Part shown: positions 1,832-63,150 of the stretch, in pieces
How the letters are laid out: the number at the start of each line of letters is the position of its first letter
How positions within the stretch are numbered: the stretch's first letter is position 1
Assembly: GCA_028823345.1 (NCBI GenBank)
Contig: JAPKBR010000009.1
Location: forward strand, 26,551 to 90,550
Origin: Planctomycetota bacterium
GTDB lineage: Bacteria; Planctomycetota; UBA1135; GCA-002686595
Length of the DNA: 64,000 nt
Reading direction: 5' to 3'
Program-made: the position numbers and the translations under genes
The notes under the pieces: generated by a model
Databases searched by the model: none
Seen by the model: the letters and a program-made list of their open reading frames with translations, nothing else
What the model was told of the DNA's origin: nothing

Positions 1832-3964
1832 ATGAGCGCTTCCTTTTCCGCGACCCCTCGCATCGTCGTCGCGGGTAACCCAAATGCTGGCAAGACCAGC
1901 ATCTTCAACCTGCTGACGGGCCTCAACCTGAAGGTGGGCAACTACCCGGGTGTCACCGTGGATCGACACTCCGGCAAGGTAAACCTGTCCGGCGGTCAGG
2001 CGTTTATCGAGGACCTGCCCGGCACCTATTCCCTTTCCGCCCGCAGCGCCGAAGAGGAAATCGCCATGTCCTCCCTGGCTGGGCACCCACCCTATGTGAT
2101 GCCGGATTTGGTGCTGCTGGTCATCGATGGCACCCAGTTGGCCCGCAACCTCTACTTGGTGTTGCAAGTGCTCGAGCTTGGCATCCCTTGTGTTTGCGCC
2201 ATCAGCATGACCGACCAGGTAGAGCTAGCCGGTGACTCCCTCGACATCGAGGCCATGAGCGCCGCCCTCGGTGTCACGGTCGTTCCCACGGCAGCTCGCA
2301 CGGGTCAAGGCCTAGAGCAACTCAAGATTGCGCTTAGCGACGCACTCAAAGAACGCCGCCGCCCGCCTGTTCCCCCGGGCCTTCCCCCCTCCGGAGGAGA
2401 ACTGGAACACAGCTTGGAGCGCATCGGCGATCAAGTTCCCGATGACTGGCATCACGGGGATGTGCGCCGACGCGACGCTCTGGCTCGCTGGGCCCTGCTT
2501 TCCCTCGACCCCACAGATGAGCTCAGCGGCCTGCCCGATTCCTTGCGGACCACGGTCAACGAAGAGCGCGACAGGCTAGAAAGCACCGGGGAGGACGCGG
2601 ACCTCATGCTGATTGGGCCCCGTTACGCCTGGATCGATGAGCACGTGGGGGAATTCCTACACAGCAAACCCGCAGCACCCGCCCAGCGGTCGTGGTCCGA
2701 ACGTTTTGATCGGGTTCTGCTTCACCCCCTACTTGGGTTGCCGATTTTCTTGATCGTCATGGCGGCCCTCTTCCAGTCACTCTTCGCTTGGGCCGATCCA
2801 ATGATTGGCGGAGTGGAGGGGATCTTTGGACAGTTCGCCACGTTTGTGCGAGGGCACATGCAAGAGGGATACTTGCGCGAGTTCGTCACCGAGGGCCTGA
2901 TCGCAGGAGTCGGAGCCGTCGTGGTCTTCCTGCCCCAGATTCTGTTGCTGTTCCTTTTCCTGGGCGTACTGGAATCATCGGGGTACATGGCGAGAGTTGC
3001 TTGGCTGATGGATCGCCTAATGCGTTCCATGGGCCTCACCGGCCGAGCCTTTGTGCCCATGCTATCGGGCTACGCCTGCGCAATCCCGGCCATCATGGCC
3101 ACGCGCACCATGGAAAGAAAACGGGACCGCCTGAAGACCATGCTGGTGGTGCCCCTGATGACCTGCTCCGCGCGCTTGCCGGTCTACACCCTGATCATCG
3201 CTACCCTCTTTCCCACCGAAGCCTGGTTTGGTCTATCCACCGCCTCGCTCTTGATGGTGGGTATGTACCTCTTCGGCACGGTCATCGCCCTGTTAGCCGC
3301 AGCGGTGCTTTCCCGGACTGTGCTCTCGGGCCCAGCGGTTCCCCTGGTGCTTGAGCTGCCCGCCTATCGCAGACCAGAGCCCATCCGAATCATTCAGGAA
3401 GCATGGCTCAAGGGCCGCGCTTTCCTTTCGGAGGCCGGCACCATCATCCTGGTTTCAACCATCGTCCTGTGGGTCTTGCTCTCGTTTCCCCAACGGGATT
3501 CCATGCCCAACGAAAGCCCCGCCGAAGCCCACGCAATCCAACTGGAATCGAGCTACGCTGGCCAGATAGGGCACTTCATCGAGCCAACCCTAGCGCCCCT
3601 GGGATTCGAATGGCGCATCGCCGTTGGCTTGATCGGCGCTTTTGCTGCGCGCGAAGTCTTCATTTCCACCCTCGGCATTGTGCACGGGGTAGGAGATGAG
3701 GCAGACGAAGAATCTTCCTCCCTCCGGCAACGCCTGCGAGATGCGAGGCGCACCGATGGCACGCCCTTGTACACGCCACTGGTGGGGCTGTCCCTGCTGG
3801 TGTTCTTCGCCCTCGCGTGCCAGTGTCTCTCGACCTTGGCGGTGGTGCGCCGGGAAACTGCAACCTGGCGCTGGCCCGCATTTTTGCTGGCCTACATGAC
3901 AGTGCTATCTTGGGTAGCCAGCGCCGTGGTCTACCAAACGGGTTTGGCCCTCGGGTTTACTTAG
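1832..3964 (+). CDS. feoB: Ferrous iron transporter B
   Basis: N-terminal G domain (VAGNPNAGKTSIFNLLTG, DLPGTYS) followed by a polytopic membrane domain; 710 aa. Confidence 0.95.
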   Translation: MSASFSATPRIVVAGNPNAGKTSIFNLLTGLNLKVGNYPGVTVDRHSGKVNLSGGQAFIEDLPGTYSLSARSAEEEIAMSSLAGHPPYVMPDLVLLVIDGTQLARNLYLVLQVLELGIPCVCAISMTDQVELAGDSLDIEAMSAALGVTVVPTAARTGQGLEQLKIALSDALKERRRPPVPPGLPPSGGELEHSLERIGDQVPDDWHHGDVRRRDALARWALLSLDPTDELSGLPDSLRTTVNEERDRLESTGEDADLMLIGPRYAWIDEHVGEFLHSKPAAPAQRSWSERFDRVLLHPLLGLPIFLIVMAALFQSLFAWADPMIGGVEGIFGQFATFVRGHMQEGYLREFVTEGLIAGVGAVVVFLPQILLLFLFLGVLESSGYMARVAWLMDRLMRSMGLTGRAFVPMLSGYACAIPAIMATRTMERKRDRLKTMLVVPLMTCSARLPVYTLIIATLFPTEAWFGLSTASLLMVGMYLFGTVIALLAAAVLSRTVLSGPAVPLVLELPAYRRPEPIRIIQEAWLKGRAFLSEAGTIILVSTIVLWVLLSFPQRDSMPNESPAEAHAIQLESSYAGQIGHFIEPTLAPLGFEWRIAVGLIGAFAAREVFISTLGIVHGVGDEADEESSSLRQRLRDARRTDGTPLYTPLVGLSLLVFFALACQCLSTLAVVRRETATWRWPAFLLAYMTVLSWVASAVVYQTGLALGFT

Positions 3965-6383
3965 CAGGCAACAAGAACTCGGCGAAGTCCGCGGCGAAGG
4001 CAACCCCCGCATGCACCCGGAGCACTTTTTTCGTGTCCGGATCCATGACGACGAAAATCGGGAGGGCGAGGTTGTTGGTCAGGTCTAACTGCAACGCCTT
4101 GTTAGCTGCAGCATGGGAACCAAGATCACAGTGCAAGCGCACTTCAACAAAGCCACTTTTTAGGATTCCGGCGACCGCCGGAGCAGGGAGGATTTTGCCC
4201 TCCATCACGCGACAGTTCACTCAGTTGAAGCCGGTGAAGTTGATCAACAGTAATTTGTCTTGGGACTTCGCTTTCGCAATAGCACCCTCGTAGTCGTCAG
4301 TCAGCAACTCCCAGCCCGCACCGGATGTGTGCTCATCACCGCCTGCGGCTGAGCGCACGGGAGCCGTTGAATAGGGCGGCGCAAAGGCGGTTAGCAATGG
4401 GTCCATCTGAAAGCCGAGGGTCAAGAACCCACAGTAGATCGCAAACAGGAAGGTCACAATTCCACCAACCATGCGGCCAGGAGAAACGATTCCGTCCTCC
4501 TCACCCTTAAGGTTGATCTTGCCGAAGAGGTACATGGCCGCGACCATGAAGATGCCCGCCCAGAGGATCAGGAAAACCTCCTTCGACAGGAAGCCCCACT
4601 CCCAAGCCAGGTCCGCCACAGACAAGAACTTCAGGCTGGCCGCTAACTCAACGAAACCCAGGAACACTTTCAGGGTGTTCATCCAAGCTCCAGCATTGGG
4701 CATCTTCTGCGCGCGACTAGGGAACAGGCTCAGGAAGACAAAGGGCGTCGCCATGGTTAATCCAAAGACCCCCATGCCCAGCACGACGCGCATCAAACCC
4801 TGTTCGCCCCCGCGTGCCAGCAAGGTCCCCACGAAGGGGGCCGTACAGGTGAACGACGTGATCACGAGAGTGAGGCCCATCATGAAGACGCCGATCAAGC
4901 CCCCCGTGGAACTGGCTTTGCCTGCTGCGCGCATCAAGAATTGAGGCGGCTGCAGGTTGACCCAGCCAAAGAGGACTAGAGCGAAGAAGACAAACATGGC
5001 CGCAATCACCAAGTTGAAAACTGGATGGTTGGCGAACTCTTGAATGGGTGCGCCCACCACCACGCCGATCACGATAAACACCGCTACGATGCCAGCGCCA
5101 TAGGCCAAGGCCAGGGAAAGAACCTTGCCGTCCCGCGCAAGCGCCTGCTTGGTGAAGAACGAGATCGTGATTGGGATCATCGGATAGGTGCAAGGCATCA
5201 GCAAGGTGATCAAGCCCCAGAAGAACGCCTCAAGCAGGAACGACCCGAGGGGTTTTTCCTCCCCGACGGGGAAGCTTGGGCCCTCAGTGCTATCGCTCGG
5301 TGTGACCCCAGCCCCAGGGGTTGGCACAACAAGCGCCGCAACCTTGGCAGTCGGGGCAGCCTTGGTTTGGGTGTAGTCCAGGCACCCCACGTCGTCGCAG
5401 GTCTGCCCCGCGACGGTCACGCTGAATTTGCCCAAAGCAGCCGCATCGGTCACGCGCCCTGGAACTTCGATCACAAAGGTGCCGTGGTGCGTGGCAACAT
5501 CAATCTCATCAAAGTCGTTGTTCATCCCCAGGATGAAGCCCGGTTCCGGAAACAGGGGTCCGGCCCATTCGATGCCCGCCCCTTCTACCGTGACCGTAGT
5601 GGGAACGCCCACGGCTCCTCCGGGAGCCATGTCCTCCTCGGTCGGTCCGTTGTAAAGGTGGTACTTGCCCGAAACCGCCACCTCGACTCGCAGCATTGCA
5701 TTCGTCCCATCGTGTTCCACCGTGGCCGAAAAGTCCGCCATCCGGTCCGATGCAAAGGAGGGAGACCAGTCAAAATCTTGAGCGTGCGCCGGATCATCAC
5801 CATGGTCCTGCTCAGGATCGTCAGCCGCGTGTGTTTCAACGGCAACTGCGGCAGTACCCCAAGGAACATCCGCAACGTCGGCCTCGGGTGCCTCGTTGTG
5901 GTCGTCCACGCCCAGGGGGAAGTTCGCGAACAGGGCATCCGCACCCGCGCCCTTAGTGGTCAAGCTGTCAGAGTAAGGAGTGCAAACCCGGTCGTCGCAG
6001 ATTTGCCCCACCACCTTGACCGCGATCCCATCGGGGTCGTCGCCCAGGACCAAACCAAGTCCGTGGACCAAAATCGTGCCTTCGTGCTTCTCGTAGACTT
6101 TTTCGGTGAACTTATCAAAGCCCGACATGGGCACTGGCATCAACCAGGTCTCCCACTCCACGTCATCCCCAACCCCTTTCAAGATCGTGGGGATGCCCGC
6201 GAACTCGGAGTCTGAGAAACTGTCGTGGTACAGGTGGTAGCCCTCATCGATCTCAATACGGACCACGGCCTGCACCAGATCGCCGTCAAGACGCGTGAAG
6301 AGTTCAGCGCGAGCGCGTTGCTGGGCCGGTGCTGCGACCGCCATGAGGGCCATCAGGACGGGAAAGAGGAGGATTTGATACAT
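3957..6383 (-). CDS. dsbD: DsbD-family thiol:disulfide interchange protein, with an in-frame TGA (4221-4223) read as probable selenocysteine in a UxxC thioredoxin motif
   Basis: Signal peptide; two DsbD-alpha-like domains (GQICDDRVC, GQTCDDVGC); CcdA-type membrane core (LLMPCTYPMIP, SFTCTAPF). The junction reads ...LLINFTGFN-TGA-VNCRVMEG..., followed by 87 in-frame codons of thioredoxin-like sequence. Confidence 0.75.
4168..4203 (-). promoter_or_regulatory. Candidate SECIS region: two hairpins downstream of the in-frame UGA
   Basis: On the mRNA: GGAGG-GCAAAAU-CCUCC (4187-4203) and CCGGC-GGUC-GCCGG (4168-4181). A GGUC apical loop also occurs in the E. coli fdhF SECIS. Here the distance from UGA is about 45 nt, longer than in fdhF. 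Confidence 0.4.
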
Positions 6384-26475: not shown

Positions 26476-28335
26476 TCAGTCCTCGGAAGAAGCTCCAAGG
26501 AAGATGCTCAGGCCACCGAAGGCTAAGAGGGCGACCTCCGGCCCGAAGGAAGATTCCGAGTGATACCGAAGGCCCCCAGGAGTGCGCGTCTCCCAGCAAC
26601 GGGCGGGTTTGAAGTGCTGAGAGAATACCTCTGCCCCGGGCAAATTCTGAATGAACTCCGCGAGTGAGGGGGGCGCGTCGGGGTCTGGGCCTTCCTGACC
26701 GGGGTCTGGGGCAACCTCGCGGCCGGGCGCACTAAACATCATTCCCGCGATTCCCTTGACTCCCCGGTAGAGGCCCGCCACCACCTGAATCCAATCCGCA
26801 TGGCTGACCTCCATTGCGGCCCCTGGCCATTCGCCCCCCGCCAGGGGCGCCGCCCCCGATCCCTTTGCCAAACCTCGAACCGCTCGTTTCGCGTGAGTCG
26901 CGCTGAGGGTCACCAGCAGCCTGTCCTCGGCCACGACCACGGTTGGCTTGATCATTCCAGACAGGGAGTCGAGGATGCTGCCGAGATTCAGAAAGCTACT
27001 TGGACCCTCCGAGTTTTCCTCGGTCATGGTTGCACTAAAGTCGCTCTTGGGCGGGAAGAAGGAGAAGGTGTAGAGCTCACGCCGCCGATAGGCTTTTGTT
27101 TCGAAGCTCGCCCCCTCGGGCAATCTGGGCTCGATATCTGCCATCCATGCGGCAAGGGCCTCGCCGGCCCGAGCGGAATCTTTTAGGGGGACCGCAAACT
27201 GAATCCCTGGCGCGGCCATCACACCTATATTGTTCGGTACCGAAATAGTTACCTGGTCTCCGAGCTCTGCAACGAGCGCTTGCCCGATCGTGGAGTCGTC
27301 CGGGCCAAAGCCCTCGGCTTTCAGAATCCCGAGCAAGGCAGAGCTATCAAGGGAGGTCGTGTATGCCACGGCCGCTTCCGGGTGGGTCAGTCCAAAGGGC
27401 TCGGCCCCAAGCGCTGTCGTTCCAAAAGCCTGCGCACCCTTGAAGCTGGGGTAGTGGCCATCCACGTGATAGCGCCCGTCGATTAGCTGTGCGCGCCACA
27501 CTCCTCCGCGGCTCCACATGGTGTAGTAGGGTCCCATAAACCCCTCGGCCAAAGGCATGAGGCCCTGGGTCAGGGGATCAGCGCGGTCCCAGCCACCCCC
27601 CTTGAGATCAGCCTCCAAGAGCACCAGGCCCTGGGCCTCGCCCAGGGGGGAGGCCTTCGTGGCGGCTGAAGACACGCCTTCACCCCAGCCCCGAGCCCAA
27701 CTGGCCGGGGAAAAGAGGGCCAAACGTTTGCCCTCCCTGTAGAGCACCAAGACCTCGATCGAGTCAGAGGGCACGCCCTCATCGGACCCCCCGGAGGCGA
27801 AAGAAAATCGGGACAGCCGTCCAGCGGATAAGTCCTCGTTCCCGACTTCCATTCCAGGAACCTGCCCGAAAGCCGCATAAATTTGATCAAAGGCAACGGT
27901 CGCGGCAGCCGAATCGGTGTAGTCCGCCACCAAACGAGCCTCAACATCCTGCACAAATTGTGGGTCGTTAAATGCGGTGAGGGTCTTGATATCTGCGAGC
28001 TCTGAGAGGGAAACGGAAACCCCGGCCATCCCCCTAAAAATGCTCTGGACCTCACCCCAGGACAAGGTCAATGCCTCCTCAAAGCTCACCGCAACCTGTG
28101 CGCCGGCCAGCCCTGAAACCCCCGCTATCAGAGCTTGGATCTCGGGCTCTTCAAAGGCCCGTCCCACGGCGGTTGTGCCATAGGCATCCATGTAGGCCTG
28201 AATCTGGGGGGCCGCGATGTAGATCGGCGCATCTTGGGGGTGAAGCGTCCGGTGATCGGTTTGAGGGCTGAGGGCGAGGAGAAGAAGGAGGGAAGCGGTC
28301 ATAGGAGATGAAATACGGAGAGGGGGCCCGATCAT
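26476..28335 (-). CDS. Hypothetical secreted protein (~620 aa)
   Basis: Long ORF with a signal-like segment (MIGPPLRISSPMTASLLLLLALSPQ) and a hydrophobic C-terminal segment. No family recognised. Start is uncertain (28335 or 28302). Confidence 0.6.
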   Translation of the reverse strand: MIGPPLRISSPMTASLLLLLALSPQTDHRTLHPQDAPIYIAAPQIQAYMDAYGTTAVGRAFEEPEIQALIAGVSGLAGAQVAVSFEEALTLSWGEVQSIFRGMAGVSVSLSELADIKTLTAFNDPQFVQDVEARLVADYTDSAAATVAFDQIYAAFGQVPGMEVGNEDLSAGRLSRFSFASGGSDEGVPSDSIEVLVLYREGKRLALFSPASWARGWGEGVSSAATKASPLGEAQGLVLLEADLKGGGWDRADPLTQGLMPLAEGFMGPYYTMWSRGGVWRAQLIDGRYHVDGHYPSFKGAQAFGTTALGAEPFGLTHPEAAVAYTTSLDSSALLGILKAEGFGPDDSTIGQALVAELGDQVTISVPNNIGVMAAPGIQFAVPLKDSARAGEALAAWMADIEPRLPEGASFETKAYRRRELYTFSFFPPKSDFSATMTEENSEGPSSFLNLGSILDSLSGMIKPTVVVAEDRLLVTLSATHAKRAVRGLAKGSGAAPLAGGEWPGAAMEVSHADWIQVVAGLYRGVKGIAGMMFSAPGREVAPDPGQEGPDPDAPPSLAEFIQNLPGAEVFSQHFKPARCWETRTPGGLRYHSESSFGPEVALLAFGGLSIFLGASSED

Positions 28336-28609
28336 GCGGAGTTTGGCGGAGAAGTCCTCATTTCGAGGGAAAAAATCAGCGCCCTGCCTCCAAAGCGGGT
28401 GTTTGGGGCCTTCCCCATGACGCCTGATTGGGACCCCTCTCTCCCATAAATCCAAGCGGGGCTTCGGAGGCGGGTTACTCCTGCCGATCAACTAGTACCA
28501 TCCTTGGAGTTCGAAGCGGTCAAGGGCCTCCCCATAGCTAGAATGCCGCGCGATCCCAGCACCTAAAGCTCCCCACTCTGGGCACCCACCTCCGATCCCA
28601 CCGACTATC

Positions 28610-57691: not shown

Positions 57692-58231
57692 ATGGCGCTT
57701 CAATTAACTCCCGAGCTGACAGAGCGCCTAGCCCAGGTGCGGCTTGTGGCCTTGGATGTGGATGGGACCTTGACTGACGGATCCGTCATCTATGGGGACG
57801 ACGGACAAGAGGTGCGTTTTGATGTGCGTGACGGCCAAGGTATGGTTTGGCTCGTGCGTGAGCTGAGCCTTGAGCTGGCCTGGATCACGGGTCGTGGATG
57901 CCTCGCAGTGGAGCGCCGCGCGGCGGAATTGGGCGTGAAGCACCTGGAAATGCACTCGGGTCCAAAGGCGGAGGTCTTGCGGTCTTTGCAGGAACGTCTC
58001 GGGGTCACGCCCGCAGAGACATTGGCTATGGGAGACGATCTTCCAGACCTTGGGCTTGCCTCAAGGGCAGGGATTTTCTGCGCGCCAGCTGATGCGCGTG
58101 AGGAGGTTCGCGCGGCCGCAACTTGGGTCACAGATTCCCCCGGTGGCCGGGGTGCCCTTCGCGAAGTGGCCGAGGAGCTGCTCCGGGCGAGAGGCTGCTG
58201 GGAGGACCTCGTGTCCCGCGCAAGGAAATGA
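57692..58231 (+). CDS. kdsC: 3-deoxy-D-manno-octulosonate 8-phosphate phosphatase (HAD, YrbI family)
   Basis: LDVDGTLTDG, DVRDGQG, GDDLPD, and GGRGALREV. Confidence 0.9.
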   Translation: MALQLTPELTERLAQVRLVALDVDGTLTDGSVIYGDDGQEVRFDVRDGQGMVWLVRELSLELAWITGRGCLAVERRAAELGVKHLEMHSGPKAEVLRSLQERLGVTPAETLAMGDDLPDLGLASRAGIFCAPADAREEVRAAATWVTDSPGGRGALREVAEELLRARGCWEDLVSRARK

Positions 58232-61200
58232 GACGGGCGCTCCTCTTTATCTTGCTCTTCGGCGGCGGAATGGTGCTGCTGGTAATGTTCGACCGCCTCA
58301 ATCGGGAGCCGGCGAATCATACGCCAGCGGGGCAGGAAATCCCCCTGGATGGAGCATTGGTGGATACTCAGACGGTGGAGGTTTCGGGCTACACAAAGAT
58401 GGAATTCTTTGATGCGGAAACAGGCTTGGTATTCCGTGAGTTTGAGGCTTCCGACCTGCAGCCGAAAGGGCAGGGTATGGTGCGCCCCTATCTGGCCACA
58501 GGCTTGACGATACTTGAGTATGTGCAAGGAAGCGGGGACTTGCTCCGGCGTGTAGATGCGGAGTCGGCGGACCTTGTATTGGACCTTGGCGGCGGCCTTG
58601 GCGGCCCTCAGCTTGGGGGCGGATCAAAAATTCAGTTGCACCAAGTGCGTCTGGAGCAACTGCGCGACTTGCCCCAGGCGCCCCTGACGGTGACGGCGCC
58701 AGAGATCCTCGCGGAATTGGACTCGCAGATCTACAGGGCCGATAACGAGCATCAGGTCAAGGTGGTGGGCGAAGGCCTCACGGCAGAAGGGAGCGGACTG
58801 TTTTTTGACGCGCGTGCGGGTCACCTGGAATTCCCCATGGGGGGCACCGTGGATTTGCTGCGAACGGGAGTTCGCCGCGGAGTCTTGTCCACAGCCGTGG
58901 GCACTCCCCTTGTCTTGAAGCAACAGGACGGCGAGCGGGGAGAGCGCTTTGAGATCACCGCCGATGGGCCTTCGGTCCTGGTTTTAGTTCAAGGACAAGA
59001 GCTCCAGTTGGATGCTGAATATTTGCATGTGGAGACGCGCGTGGGCGAGTCGGGGGTGGAGGTGAGCCGCATTATTGCCCGGGGCCCCACGGTGGTGACC
59101 CGTGGTGCGGACCGCTTTGGCGGCATCGATGCCACCGTCCAGTTTGAGCCCGATGGTTCTGTCCGTTTTGAAGTGGCAAGCAAGCCCTGGTTCTCTCTTG
59201 GTGATGGAGCCACACCAGATGCTCCGGCCTTGGTCACAATGACCGGAGAAGGAGTGTTGTGGGCGGTGGACGGTCCGGACGAGCTGCTTTTCGGGTTGGA
59301 TGGGGAGGGCGAGATTGCCGGGCCAGAGGGGTCGCGGCTTGAGGCCCAAGATGGGTTTACCGGCACGCTGGCGGCAGACCGGGGTTCGGTGGATTTGGAC
59401 TTGCATGGGGAGGTGTTCATGGGTCAGGCGGGGCTGGAGATCTTCACGAGCAACGCGCACTTAGTTTTGATGGGCGGTGACGAGCTGGAGCTCAGGCTCC
59501 AGACCGGCGAGCCCTTGCAGATAATCTCGAACGCTGGGGGAGAACCGACCGGAGCGCTCACCGCCGTGGGCGGGGCGGATCTGATTCTGGAGGAGGGAGA
59601 GGTGCAGGTGATTCATGCTCTTGGGGTACAGGCGGAAACCTTCGGGGGCTTGGAGGGGAGCTTGTCCTGTGATGAACTCAAGAATTTGTCGGCAGACTTC
59701 CTTCATTTTGACGCCAAAGGAAAGGTGTCCTGGCAAACACCCGATGGTTCCGGGTTTGCTGACCGCATGGTTGCTAAGGGGGACCAAATCGAGCTATTCG
59801 GCATACCGGGGCAAAAGGCTCAGCTTGCGTGGCGCGACGAGGGAGCGCAGATCGCAGAATTGGAAGCCATGCGCGTGGTGGCGTCCGCAACTCACGCCGA
59901 GGCGTGGGAGGATGTGCGCGTGGATATTGTTCTGGCCGCATCCCAATTGGGCATGGGGTGTGCTCACACGCGCATCGATCAGGTGGGCCACGACTTTCAC
60001 TGGCGCGCGGAAAAGGTGACCGATGGGCTTTGGACCGAAGGCGAGACGGTCGTTGCCTTGGAGGCCGGAGTCTTAGAGGCAGATTGGAGCCGCATCGAGC
60101 AAGAGGACGGGTCTTTTATCCGTCAGGCCAGCCTGGTGCAAGTGCAAGAGGATGTGCGGGCTCATATAACCCAGGGCAACACCGTGAACGTGCAAGCGGA
60201 CTCCCTGACCATGATACCGGGGCAGAGCATCACGCTTAGTGCTTTGCCTGGAAGACAAATTACCGCGAGAGGATTGTTACCCGCCACGGGTTTTCCATTC
60301 ACTGTTCACGGAACACTAATGGTTGTTCAACAGGACGAGGTCCGGTTGCAGGGGGTGAAGGGTGTGCTTGAGGGTGCGCTCCTGCCCTTGTCCCCCGGCG
60401 CCCCTAAAGGCGCCGACCACCTGCGTGAGAACTCCGATTTCGCAGCAAACCTCTTTGTGTTGACGAGGACCAGCCTTGAGCTTGAGGGAGAGGCCTATCT
60501 TGAGTCCGCTGACCTAGACGGCAACCCCCTGAACCTTACGGCGGATCGAATTTCCAGCGGTTATGACTTACCCCCAGACCAGGCTCGGCCAGGCCCCGCG
60601 AACATTCATTTCATCAACGCAGAGGGCAATGTGCGGGCGGCGTACGGAGGCCTTGCGCGCTTCGAGGCGGATGAACTGCTGGTGGATCACGAGCGAGTGA
60701 TTCTGCGGGGAAGTCCGCTCTTGGCCCGATCGGAGGGCTTTCGTTTTGAAACCACTGAGGCAACCTTTGGATTGGCGGACTATTTGCTCGATGCGGAAGC
60801 CGGCATCATCCGTCAGGGCCCCGCCTGGAGTCTGGCTTTCAGTGGGGCCGCCGGGGTTCGCACCGGCGCAGACCTGATGCAAACGATCAGTGGCCTCGTT
60901 CATGTTAATTTTGATGAAACCTCCCGGGCGGATTACATGTCCATTTGGTTGCACCCATCCCGCTGGAGGGCAATGATCCATGAGCGCCTATGGGGAACCC
61001 CATTGGACTTGGACTATGAGGGTTTGGTCACCGAGGCGCCAGGCCTTCAAGAAACGGAGCTGGTCAACAACACTTTCCAGCGGCTGGCCCGGGGCGAGCT
61101 AGCCTCTTTTGTGCGTGCGTTTCACCTTTGGGGCAGCGTTGAGGTAGCGAGCCAAGGCGTTCGAAGCGCGAGGGCGGAAGAGGCATACCTCGACCTAGAG

Positions 61201-63150
61201 GGCCGCCGCGGCTGGCTTAAGGAAACTGAGCTTGGGTTTGAGATCGAAGTGAGGGGCAAGACGGAGCGCTTGCGTGCATTTGCAGGTCGCTTGGACAGCT
61301 TGCCCTCGGGCGGCCTTGTGGCTTCGGACGCGACCTTGACCGCATGCAATCATGAGATCCCGCACTATGTCATCGAGACCTCGGATCTGCGCCTCGAACC
61401 ACGCGCCGACGGACACTGGAAGTTCGGCGTGAGCGGAAACCGTCTGCGCTTCCCCGGGGGCTTTGGCTTGCCCTTGCCAGGCATCGGCAGCGTCGTGCTG
61501 GACGAAGCTGGCAGTTTCGAGGGATTTGAAGACGAGGACGGCAAGATCCGCACGATTCAGAATATCTTTCTTTCCAGCACAGCTCGATTTGGAACGGCCC
61601 TTGGCACAGAGGGCACCACGGACATTGGATCCCTGGGGCAAAGCGTGGCAACCGTCTTTGGCTTCGACAAGACACAGGCCAGTGGCCAGTGGAAGTACGA
61701 AGGTGCTTGGCTAGGATCTCGCGGCCCGCTCTTAGGCATGGGCTTGCTCCTACGCGAAAACGAAAGCGGACCTAGCAGGGACGACGTCTATTGGCTGAAC
61801 CTCTGGGCGAGGGGTATCCACGATCAAGGCGAGGACCGCGGCGTATTGCGTGTAGAAGACGGCACGGAAAGTGACACACGTTTGTGGTTGAACGCGCGGG
61901 GACGGTATCCCTTCGACAGTCGCCAGTGGATTGATGCGGTGGTCAACTACCAGACCGACCCAGGTGTTCAGTCTGAGTTTTATGAGCGTGAATACCTCGA
62001 TTATGAAGAGAGGGACACTTATCTCCATTGGCGTAAGGCCCGTGATGGGCACTACTTCAGCGCGAAGGTCTCGGACCAGGGCAATAGTTTCCGGAGCGCC
62101 GTGCTCGAAAGGCCCGCCGTCGGGTTCTATCGAGGAGCCGCCGAGGTTGGTCGGGTCCTCGACCACTCGCTGAGTTATTCCGCAAGCGTCGATGCGGCCT
62201 ATCTAGAGAGGCGCGAGGGCGACCTAGATTTTGAACCCGCCTTCTTGGGCTTGGATGGCAACCCTGACGGACTTGGCGACCGTAGGGTGATGAGGGTGGA
62301 CACAATTCACGAGCTCGCCTTGCCCGTAGGTATTGGCGAGAGTGGTATCACCGCAGTTCCGACGCTCGACTTGCAGGCAACCTCATGGGACCGTTCGGTG
62401 AACGACAATAAGACGGTCGGTCGGGCCGGGGTATTTGCCGGACTCGAGATGGGGGGCTCGTGGGCACGTATTTCAGACACGAGCGCCACCTCTATTTCGC
62501 CGTTCATCAGTCACAGGGAACAGCTTTGGATCGACGAAGAGGTGGGGCAAATTGTGCAATTCGATTCCCTCGACCAACCGATTGGCGGGAGCCGCTCGGG
62601 GGTGGGTTTGCGCCTGCGGTGGACGCGTCCGGTTTCGAACGATCGTATGGATTTTGACCTAGGCCTGGAGCGTCTGCACGGGAACCCCCAGAGCGCGGCG
62701 CAATTGGACACTGCCCGGTTTTTAGGCAGCCTGGGGACGACGGCCTTTGGCATACCCATGGGCGTTCGACATGACGGGCGCTATCTGTTTGATGAGGGCG
62801 AAACCGCCTATTCCAAGTCGGTGTTTGCCATCAAGCCGGTGGACTGGTTTGAGTTTCAGTTGGTTCATGACCGGGGCAACCAAGCGAACCTGGACACCCT
62901 CTATGAGGCGATCACCTACCGCGGACGCATAACCCTCGATGCTAAGTGGGAGGTGGATGCGCTGGCTCAACACGCAATCTTTGGCGGAGGATCCCTGCGC
63001 TCAGAACTGCTCCTGCGCCGCATTGGGCACGACTTTATCTTCGAGGTGGGCATCTTTCACCGGGAGGGGGAGGGGTCTGGAATCAAAGTCGACCTTGCGC
63101 CCCTTCTTGGGTGGACCCGTTCCCGGGTTAGCATCTTGTCTCCCCGCTAG
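58228..63150 (+). CDS. lptD: Giant (1640 aa) LptD/OstA-family LPS-assembly protein with an N-terminal membrane anchor and a ~1000-aa periplasmic extension
   Basis: ATGA overlap with kdsC. N-terminal anchor [21 protein letters not shown]. OstA-type motif [23 protein letters not shown]. LptD-like landmarks [38 protein letters not shown] and [17 protein letters not shown]. Beta-rich C-terminus. Confidence 0.55.
   Translation: [1640 protein letters not shown]

Follow-up and report, generated by a model that had tools for sequence, protein, structure and literature searches.

An in-frame UGA as the predicted selenocysteine codon of a DsbD-superfamily membrane protein in Planctomycetota

Results

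A DsbD-family reading frame continues beyond an in-frame TGA

We analysed a 64,000-nucleotide (nt) stretch of contig JAPKBR010000009.1 from a Planctomycetota bacterium (hereafter the 64 kb window, whose numbering is used throughout), which carries a DsbD-family gene on its minus strand. The open reading frame (ORF) begins with an ATG at position 6383 and runs for 720 codons (6383..4224) to a TGA at 4223-4221, beyond which the same frame stays open for 87 further codons and ends at a TAA at 3959-3957. The peptide at the junction reads ...LLINFTGFN-TGA-VNC-RVMEGKILPAPAVAGIL... An initial annotation of this DNA had described a 720-codon DsbD-like ORF halted by a TGA at the active site of its gamma domain, with 87 codons open beyond, and translation confirms this. 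The same annotation placed the end of the extension 8 nt inside the convergent feoB, and the coordinates agree: the feoB ORF (1832-3964; Pfam FeoB_N, Gate and FeoB_C) overlaps the end of the gene by 8 nt, the TAA (3957..3959) lying inside its last codons.

If the TGA is translated rather than taken as a stop, the gene comprises 808 codons (3960..6383, minus strand, the last sense codon ending at 3960) and the TAA would be its true stop. Codon 721 (4221..4223) is then the UGA, predicted to encode selenocysteine (Sec, U), and codon 724 is a TGT (4212..4214) for the resolving cysteine of the resulting UxxC motif, which aligns with the second CxxC cysteine in all of the Cys-form homologues aligned. 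The translation, searched against Pfam in this form, matches DsbD_N, DsbD_TM and Thioredoxin_7. The gene is thus predicted to encode one 808-residue membrane protein of the DsbD superfamily, with a signal peptide, two alpha domains, a CcdA-type membrane domain and a gamma domain.

The hydrophobic N-terminus, read by eye from the sequence, is probably a signal peptide (amino acids (aa) 1-22, MYQILLFPVLMALMAVAAPAQQ; 6318..6383, minus strand, as are all features of this gene). It is followed by the first alpha-like domain (5961..6293; Pfam PF11412, DsbD_N, E=4.3e-11, aa 31-141), which holds the pair C129/C134 (5999-5997 and 5984-5982), and by a second (5364..5759, aa ~209-340) with the pair C329/C334 (5399-5397 and 5384-5382). 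The two QxCDDxxC motifs that had been reported for these domains are present as GQICDDRVC and GQTCDDVGC, so that each copy holds a CDDxxC pair, and the second domain is recovered by BLASTP with the first at E=9e-12. The predicted alpha-like (Ig-like) domains are an internal duplication, each with its own CxxxxC pair, and C329 and C334 are invariant in our family alignment (A1).

The beta domain (4623..5234; aa 384-587) is a membrane core of the DsbD_TM/CcdA type (Pfam PF02683, E=3e-25; PDB CcdA 5VKV). The cysteines that the initial annotation had assigned to PC..P and FTCT motifs lie within this match, as C398 (5192-5190) in MPCTYPMIP and C513 (4847-4845) in SFTCTAPF. Both cysteines are invariant in the family alignment, as are the motifs MPCTYPMI and FTCTAPFV around them.

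The C-terminal gamma domain (3960..4301, aa 695-808) is thioredoxin-like and straddles the TGA. Its best Pfam match, Thioredoxin_7, extends over aa 695-782 and thus covers codon 721 (E=7.6e-9), with a score of 36-40 bits against a gathering cutoff of 27; the match to PF13098 (Thioredoxin_2) is weak (21.2 bits against a cutoff of 27, E=3.9e-4). The closest solved structure for this part of the protein is PDB 3F9U, an exported thioredoxin related to cytochrome c biogenesis, whose 'LDFTGYGCVNCRKME' aligns across the TGA; the CVNC and CVAC motifs of 3F9U and E. coli DsbD fall onto U-VNC. The 'LDLYADWCVACKEFE' of E. coli DsbD lies on 'LINFTGFN-U-VNCRVME', and codon 721 is therefore the equivalent of E. 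coli Cys461. Of the features that define the DsbD superfamily, the CcdA/DsbD_TM core with two redox cysteines and the N-terminal alpha domain with a cysteine pair are both present, and the CxxC of the gamma domain is present only if the UGA is decoded.

The TGA and the frame behind it are conserved

To place the codon in its family we scanned genomes, one per species, and obtained 80 related loci (numbered with an L below), nearly all from metagenome-assembled genomes (MAGs) of Planctomycetota, together with the cultured Engelhardtia mirabilis Pla133 (L048). The 81 sites counted comprise these 80 loci, 3 loci from an exact protein look-up (partly the same records) and the window. The equivalent of codon 721 is TGA at 76 of the 81 sites and TGC or TGT at the other 5, and it is never TAA or TAG (0/81). 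Behind the TGA the frame is open for 84-113 codons in the related loci, with the conserved pattern xxCRxME...EARLH...DP...FL.

Protein databases give a similar picture. The fused protein, used as a query, found 556 homologues; among the best 120 homologous clusters, 89 are called as ending exactly at ...NFTGxx, 30 have ~800 residues with NFTGxxCxxC and a Thioredoxin_7 domain, and one is cut by the end of its contig. Cysteine-containing homologues do hold TGC or TGT at this codon, as is seen in the 5 of 81 genome sites, in the 30 full-length NFTGxxCxxC clusters, and in 45 distinct Cys-form sequences aligned at the codon.

Substitutions downstream of the TGA are concentrated at third codon positions: differences at positions 1/2/3 number 1/1/11 relative to L005, a MAG contig 95% identical to the window, and 17/11/39 relative to L001. 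This concentration indicates that the region after the TGA is translated in this frame, and the downstream frame is, as judged from these substitutions, under purifying selection. The initial annotation had taken the codons past the TGA to complete a thioredoxin-like domain, and the downstream codons indeed show both homology and conservation: Thioredoxin_7 spans the site, the frame is conserved and the third-position bias is evident.

These features are hidden in public gene calls, where the locus appears as a 720-aa hypothetical or DsbD-family protein and a separate 82-aa 'hypothetical protein' (window 3957-4205, minus strand; P0121-P0124). The 82-aa ORF begins at an internal ATG (MEGKILPAP...), past both active-site residues. 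We could not find a fused, Sec-containing entry; a query with the gamma domain spanning the junction matched only split 82-aa ORFs.

The closest subclade (the window, L001-L009 and L011) has an extra cysteine in the gamma domain, Cys752 (4128-4130), within 'RLHCDL'. Elsewhere in the family this position reads RLHTD, RLHND or RLHAD.

Two hairpins follow the UGA

Two hairpins lie downstream of the UGA within the coding sequence, at the coordinates given for them by the initial annotation (4203-4187 and 4182-4167, minus strand). The first, H1 (GGAGGG-CAAAA-UCCUCC; 4187..4203), starts 17 nt after the UGA and folds at -7.8 kcal/mol. The second, H2 (UCCGGC-GGUC-GCCGGA; 4167..4182), has a 6-bp stem closed by the loop at 4176-4173 and folds at -11.2 kcal/mol (z=-3.2), a value equalled by none of 200 shuffled sequences. 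We consider H2 a candidate for the SelB-binding core of a selenocysteine insertion sequence (SECIS). SelB recognises G-U in the loop of the E. coli fdhF SECIS. The H2 loop had been estimated to lie about 45 nt from the UGA, farther than in fdhF, and our measurements agree: the GGUC loop is 44 nt past the UGA here and 18 nt past it in the fdhF control.

We then asked how these structures vary in an RNA alignment of the 69 nt that follow the UGA, which is gapless in 73 TGA forms, pair counts being taken across the 72 distinct ones. For H1, 91% of cells are paired and 3 of the 6 pairs have changed on both sides, that is, in a compensatory manner; for H2, 81% of cells are paired and 5 of the 6 pairs have done so. 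The covariation score is 0.224, against 0.131 for shuffled alignments (0/500 reach the observed value) and at most 0.155 for controls in which the structure was slid along the alignment. Compensatory variants of the H2 stem include CCAGC/GCUGG in L011 (through synonymous changes), GAAGC/GCUUC in L012, GGAGC/GCUCC in L079, UCGGC/GCCGA in L062 and CCCAC/GUGGG in L050.

The hairpins also distinguish Sec forms from Cys forms. After adding 55 Cys-type loci from metagenomes, we compared distinct sequences only (72 Sec forms and 45 Cys forms). GGTC occupies the position of the H2 loop in 66/72 Sec forms as against 2/45 Cys forms, H2 retains at least 5 of its 6 pairs in 53/72 as against 3/45, and H1 retains at least 5 of 6 in 63/72 as against 14/45; this comparison is partly confounded with phylogeny, many Cys forms being more distant relatives. 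Three Cys forms (L060:2435-2503, L066:2450-2518 and L071:3592-3660) are nested among Sec forms and have lost H2. Their peptide is that of Sec forms such as L030 and L035 up to ...EEKVF[PT]LP, and differs in the hairpin region (PSVSKEL vs PAVAGEL). It seems that Sec was recently replaced by Cys in these genes and that the SECIS then decayed.

Six Sec forms that lack H2 have a GGUC-loop hairpin closer to the UGA. The loop lies at 26 nt in L022 (7139-7190), L024, L031, L044 and L057, which form the 'NEEKVFPS' subgroup, and at 20 nt in L072 (2641-2690). The occurrence of three GGUC spacings in one family suggests that SECIS spacing is tolerant or that the element was re-invented repeatedly.

From its specificity to Sec forms, its covariation, and the GGUC loops found nearer the UGA in forms without it, H2 is therefore the best candidate for the part of the SECIS that binds SelB, and its GGUC loop is likely to be the SelB-binding core. 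The stem-loop criterion of bSECIS looks for a small apical loop opened by G and then G or U, with a minimum free energy of -7.5 kcal/mol or lower; H2, with its 6-bp stem, GGUC loop and -11.2 kcal/mol, has both. H1, by folding the RNA in between, may bring the loop effectively closer to the UGA and so serve as a spacer.

Selenocysteine and the alternatives to it

The initial annotation had proposed that Sec replaces the first cysteine of the gamma-domain CxxC, and the comparisons support it: homology to Thioredoxin_7, 3F9U and E. coli DsbD runs through the TGA, the TGA is present at 76 of 81 sites, and H2 is specific to TGA forms. On this evidence we infer, with high confidence, that the TGA at 4223-4221 encodes the selenocysteine of the gamma-domain active site U721-V-N-C724.

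Several results weigh against this reading. Searches by tblastn with E. coli SelA, SelB and SelD detected none of the three genes in the window or in ~1.3 Mb of related loci, where SelB gave only weak matches in its GTPase domain that do not represent SelB; ARAGORN found no tRNA-Sec in the window and loci L004-L063; and an Rfam search of the window gave nothing. Other Planctomycetes, namely Gemmata, Isosphaera and two Porphyra-associated strains, are reported to have selenoproteins and the machinery for Sec (PMC4807772); the Sec trait therefore exists in the phylum, and for the present organism it is a prediction. The 44-nt spacing of H2, far beyond the 18 nt of fdhF, falls outside the 16-37 nt between UGA and apical loop in the consensus bacterial SECIS model (PMC13188914). 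The spacing of H1 does conform (22-23 nt), yet its loop (CAAAA or GCAAAAU) has no GG or GU. Finally, RNAalifold applied to the 73-sequence alignment returned only the H1 core (4 pairs); H2 is lost there, since some loops are shifted in register and one subgroup does not have it.

We tentatively propose that the functional SECIS is a two-hairpin element with its GGUC loop 44 nt downstream and H1 as a conserved spacer, a long-range variant likely to escape standard predictors; we give this slightly less than even odds. If it is true, the element implies a different geometry of contact between SelB, ribosome and mRNA in Planctomycetota. A conserved, covarying GGUC hairpin at 44 nt is useful for testing the rules on spacing in bacterial SECIS elements.

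Among the alternatives, the one that survives best, although very improbable, is that the UGA is read through without Sec, by a near-cognate Cys or Trp tRNA or a lineage-specific suppressor tRNA, with the hairpins serving as a general stimulator of read-through. The missing Sec machinery in the window and related loci and the atypical hairpin spacing (44 nt, against 16-37 nt; PMC13188914) would fit such a mechanism. However, the recoded position is the catalytic CxxC cysteine, the classic site of Sec/Cys pairs, and UxxC is the motif of known thioredoxin-fold selenoproteins (PMC13188914, PMC2398784). Moreover, the GGUC loop is identical to that of the E. coli fdhF SECIS, and TGA is kept in 94% of sites even though TGC and TGT are one mutation away and are used by a few lineages.

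We give still less credence to a genuine stop, under which the product would be an alpha-alpha-beta protein of 720 residues that lacks the gamma domain, and the downstream 82-87 codons would be a separate small gene or a decaying remnant. Public gene callers do split the locus into 720-aa and 82-aa 'hypothetical' products, and TGA is an ordinary stop here, ending 28 of the 50 long ORFs in the window and being its commonest stop codon. Sec insertion in bacteria competes with termination (PMC4513850), and some truncated product is likely made too as a result. Nevertheless, a stop at this position would break the thioredoxin fold between beta1 and the active-site helix, and would leave without a role the TGA-form-specific hairpin with its compensatory changes. 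A remnant would not hold open a third-position-biased frame in 76 related loci, nor would it be preceded by TGA every time. We reject an independent downstream gene, because there is no conserved start codon (the codon directly after the TGA varies between genomes, encoding V, A, S, Q, P, L, M, T or I) and the 82-aa ORF would have neither active-site residue.

A sequencing or assembly error for TGC or TGT, a single-base difference, has a negligible chance of being the explanation, because the same TGA is common to 76 sites, namely the 95%-identical L005 and 75 further sites of independent assemblies that include a complete genome (L048). We reject a reassigned genetic code, since no other stop codon is used as often as TGA in the window.

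Genes around the locus

The dsbD-like gene has a CDF cation-efflux gene on one side and feoAB on the other, with housekeeping genes around them (RNR, murJ, gyrA). Among the neighbouring genes we found no ccm, scsC or peroxiredoxin partner adjoining it. A scan of the window for in-frame TGA codons within Cys-containing motifs returned only the target site and no other selenoprotein gene. Likewise, when the window was searched for in-frame TGA codons followed by a GGUC hairpin with a stem of 5 bp or more, only the target emerged, one extra match being an out-of-frame artefact.

Two long ORFs in the window, at 58102-63150 (plus strand, 1682 aa) and 26476-28491 (minus strand, 671 aa), matched no Pfam family at E<=1e-5. 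The relatives L001-L003, which are 76% identical, have genes with BrxC/BrxD-like and Cas3-like helicase domains ~6-10 kb past feoAB (L001-L003:18326-22133), in what looks like a defence-system neighbourhood.

Discussion

A proposed selenium-dependent disulfide relay

If the UGA is decoded as Sec, SelB carrying Sec-tRNA(Sec) would be recruited to it by the two adjacent downstream hairpins, the second of which would display the GGUC tetraloop. By homology with E. coli DsbD, electrons would pass from cytoplasmic thioredoxin to C398/C513 of the membrane domain, on to U721/C724, then to the cysteine pair of an alpha domain, and finally to periplasmic substrates. U721 would stand where E. coli has Cys461, the attacking cysteine of the gamma domain.

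The target of Cys461 in E. coli DsbD is the alpha-domain disulfide Cys103-Cys109. The unusually high pKa of Cys461 (10.5), imposed by Asp455 and Glu468, gates its reactivity and makes it a poor nucleophile (PMC2631958). Here the position of Asp455 is occupied by Asn715 (4239-4241), an invariant Asn in the family in Sec and Cys forms alike, and that of Glu468 is retained as Glu728 (E728; 4200-4202). A selenol is ionised at neutral, physiological pH. Sec as the attacking residue would therefore supply this step of the relay with a nucleophile that is always strong and is also a good leaving group. The family would offer a natural test of what a permanently ionised nucleophile does to a disulfide relay, at the position where the reactivity of E. 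coli Cys461 is held down by a pKa of 10.5 (PMC2631958). With Sec predicted at 76 of 81 sites, the clade appears to be committed to selenium in a periplasmic reducing relay.

Comparison with known systems

The gamma domain invites comparison with cd02953, which we take to be the DsbD-gamma family. A selenoprotein family with a UxxC motif, named 'Thiol:disulfide interchange protein' or 'Trx-like 2', has been catalogued under cd02953 (PMC2398784) and, in a 2026 review, under PF13098 (PMC13188914). It was first listed by Kryukov and Gladyshev in 2004, according to both of these sources (PMC2398784, PMC13188914), and was known from 3 bacterial genomes in 2006 (PMC1794560). By their descriptions, the two share a thioredoxin fold of the DsbD-gamma type, Sec (predicted in the present case) at the first position of the CxxC and abundant Cys homologues. 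They differ in that the best Pfam match here is Thioredoxin_7 rather than Thioredoxin_2, and in that earlier reports came from Deltaproteobacteria and ocean reads rather than from Planctomycetota. The Global Ocean Sampling (GOS) data held 2,098 Cys against 22 Sec homologues of Trx-like 2, whereas in the present clade Sec is predicted at 76 of 81 sites. Sec in a DsbD-gamma-like UxxC protein is thus an already known kind, reported since 2004-2008, of which the present gene would be a further member.

The protein is colinear with E. coli DsbD (DipZ) over the beta and gamma domains (BLASTP E=3e-15), with both membrane cysteines and the CxxC corresponding position for position, and with the NCBIfam DsbD profile (NF001419 / PRK00293) over aa 370-802, which cover profile positions 159-567 of 574. 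However, identity to E. coli DsbD is 25%, and the profile score is 117.9 bits against an NCBIfam cutoff of 330. Because it reaches only ~118 bits, we regard it as a distant member of the DsbD superfamily and not as an equivalog of the E. coli type. It also differs in having two tandem CxxxxC alpha-like domains where E. coli has one, predicted Sec in place of Cys461, and Asn715 in place of Asp455.

With the ScsB class the protein shares the alpha-beta-gamma order and an enlarged alpha region of two subdomains (PMC3322552), and the JGI names of several homologues read 'DsbC/DsbD-like ... / CcdA'. ScsB has been described from Proteobacteria and Chlamydia, with an alpha domain that reportedly does not align to that of DsbD (PMC3322552). 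Here, in contrast, the alpha domain matches Pfam DsbD_N, no ScsB structure or model matched the protein, and there is no adjoining ScsC or peroxiredoxin partner.

TsoB, a selenoprotein resembling a rhodanese/DsbD fusion (NF045694), is the only DsbD-related selenoprotein with an NCBIfam model of its own. Its membrane domain is homologous to the one described here (E=1.5e-32, aa 382-619), but the match is confined to that domain and scores 112.4 bits against a cutoff of 805, and there is no rhodanese domain in our protein. The two Sec residues of TsoB form a UxxxxU motif elsewhere in the protein (PMC13188914). The Trx7/PDZ (seleno)protein (NF041199) differs too, scoring 20.5 bits against a cutoff of 300 and having a CxxU motif, whereas our protein has UxxC and lacks a PDZ domain. 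No model dedicated to the present family exists in NCBIfam release 20.

The proposed SECIS resembles that of E. coli fdhF in being a hairpin within the coding sequence directly downstream of the UGA and in its identical GGUC apical loop. It differs in its loop distance (44 nt against 18 nt) and in the conserved H1 that stands between the UGA and the GGUC hairpin. A two-hairpin SECIS of such long spacing appears not to have been catalogued so far.

Thioredoxin-fold UxxC selenoproteins, DsbD-gamma-like ones included, are well known, and current understanding is not overturned by the present gene. Public annotation divides this gene, like at least 89 related clusters, between a "truncated" DsbD-family protein and a small hypothetical ORF. 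Once the Sec codon is recognised, many Planctomycetota, Engelhardtia mirabilis Pla133 among them, would regain an intact alpha-beta-gamma reductase. What appears to be new relative to the known families is this large Planctomycetota clade of full-length alpha-alpha-beta-gamma proteins, not catalogued so far, in which Sec would be the rule (76/81).

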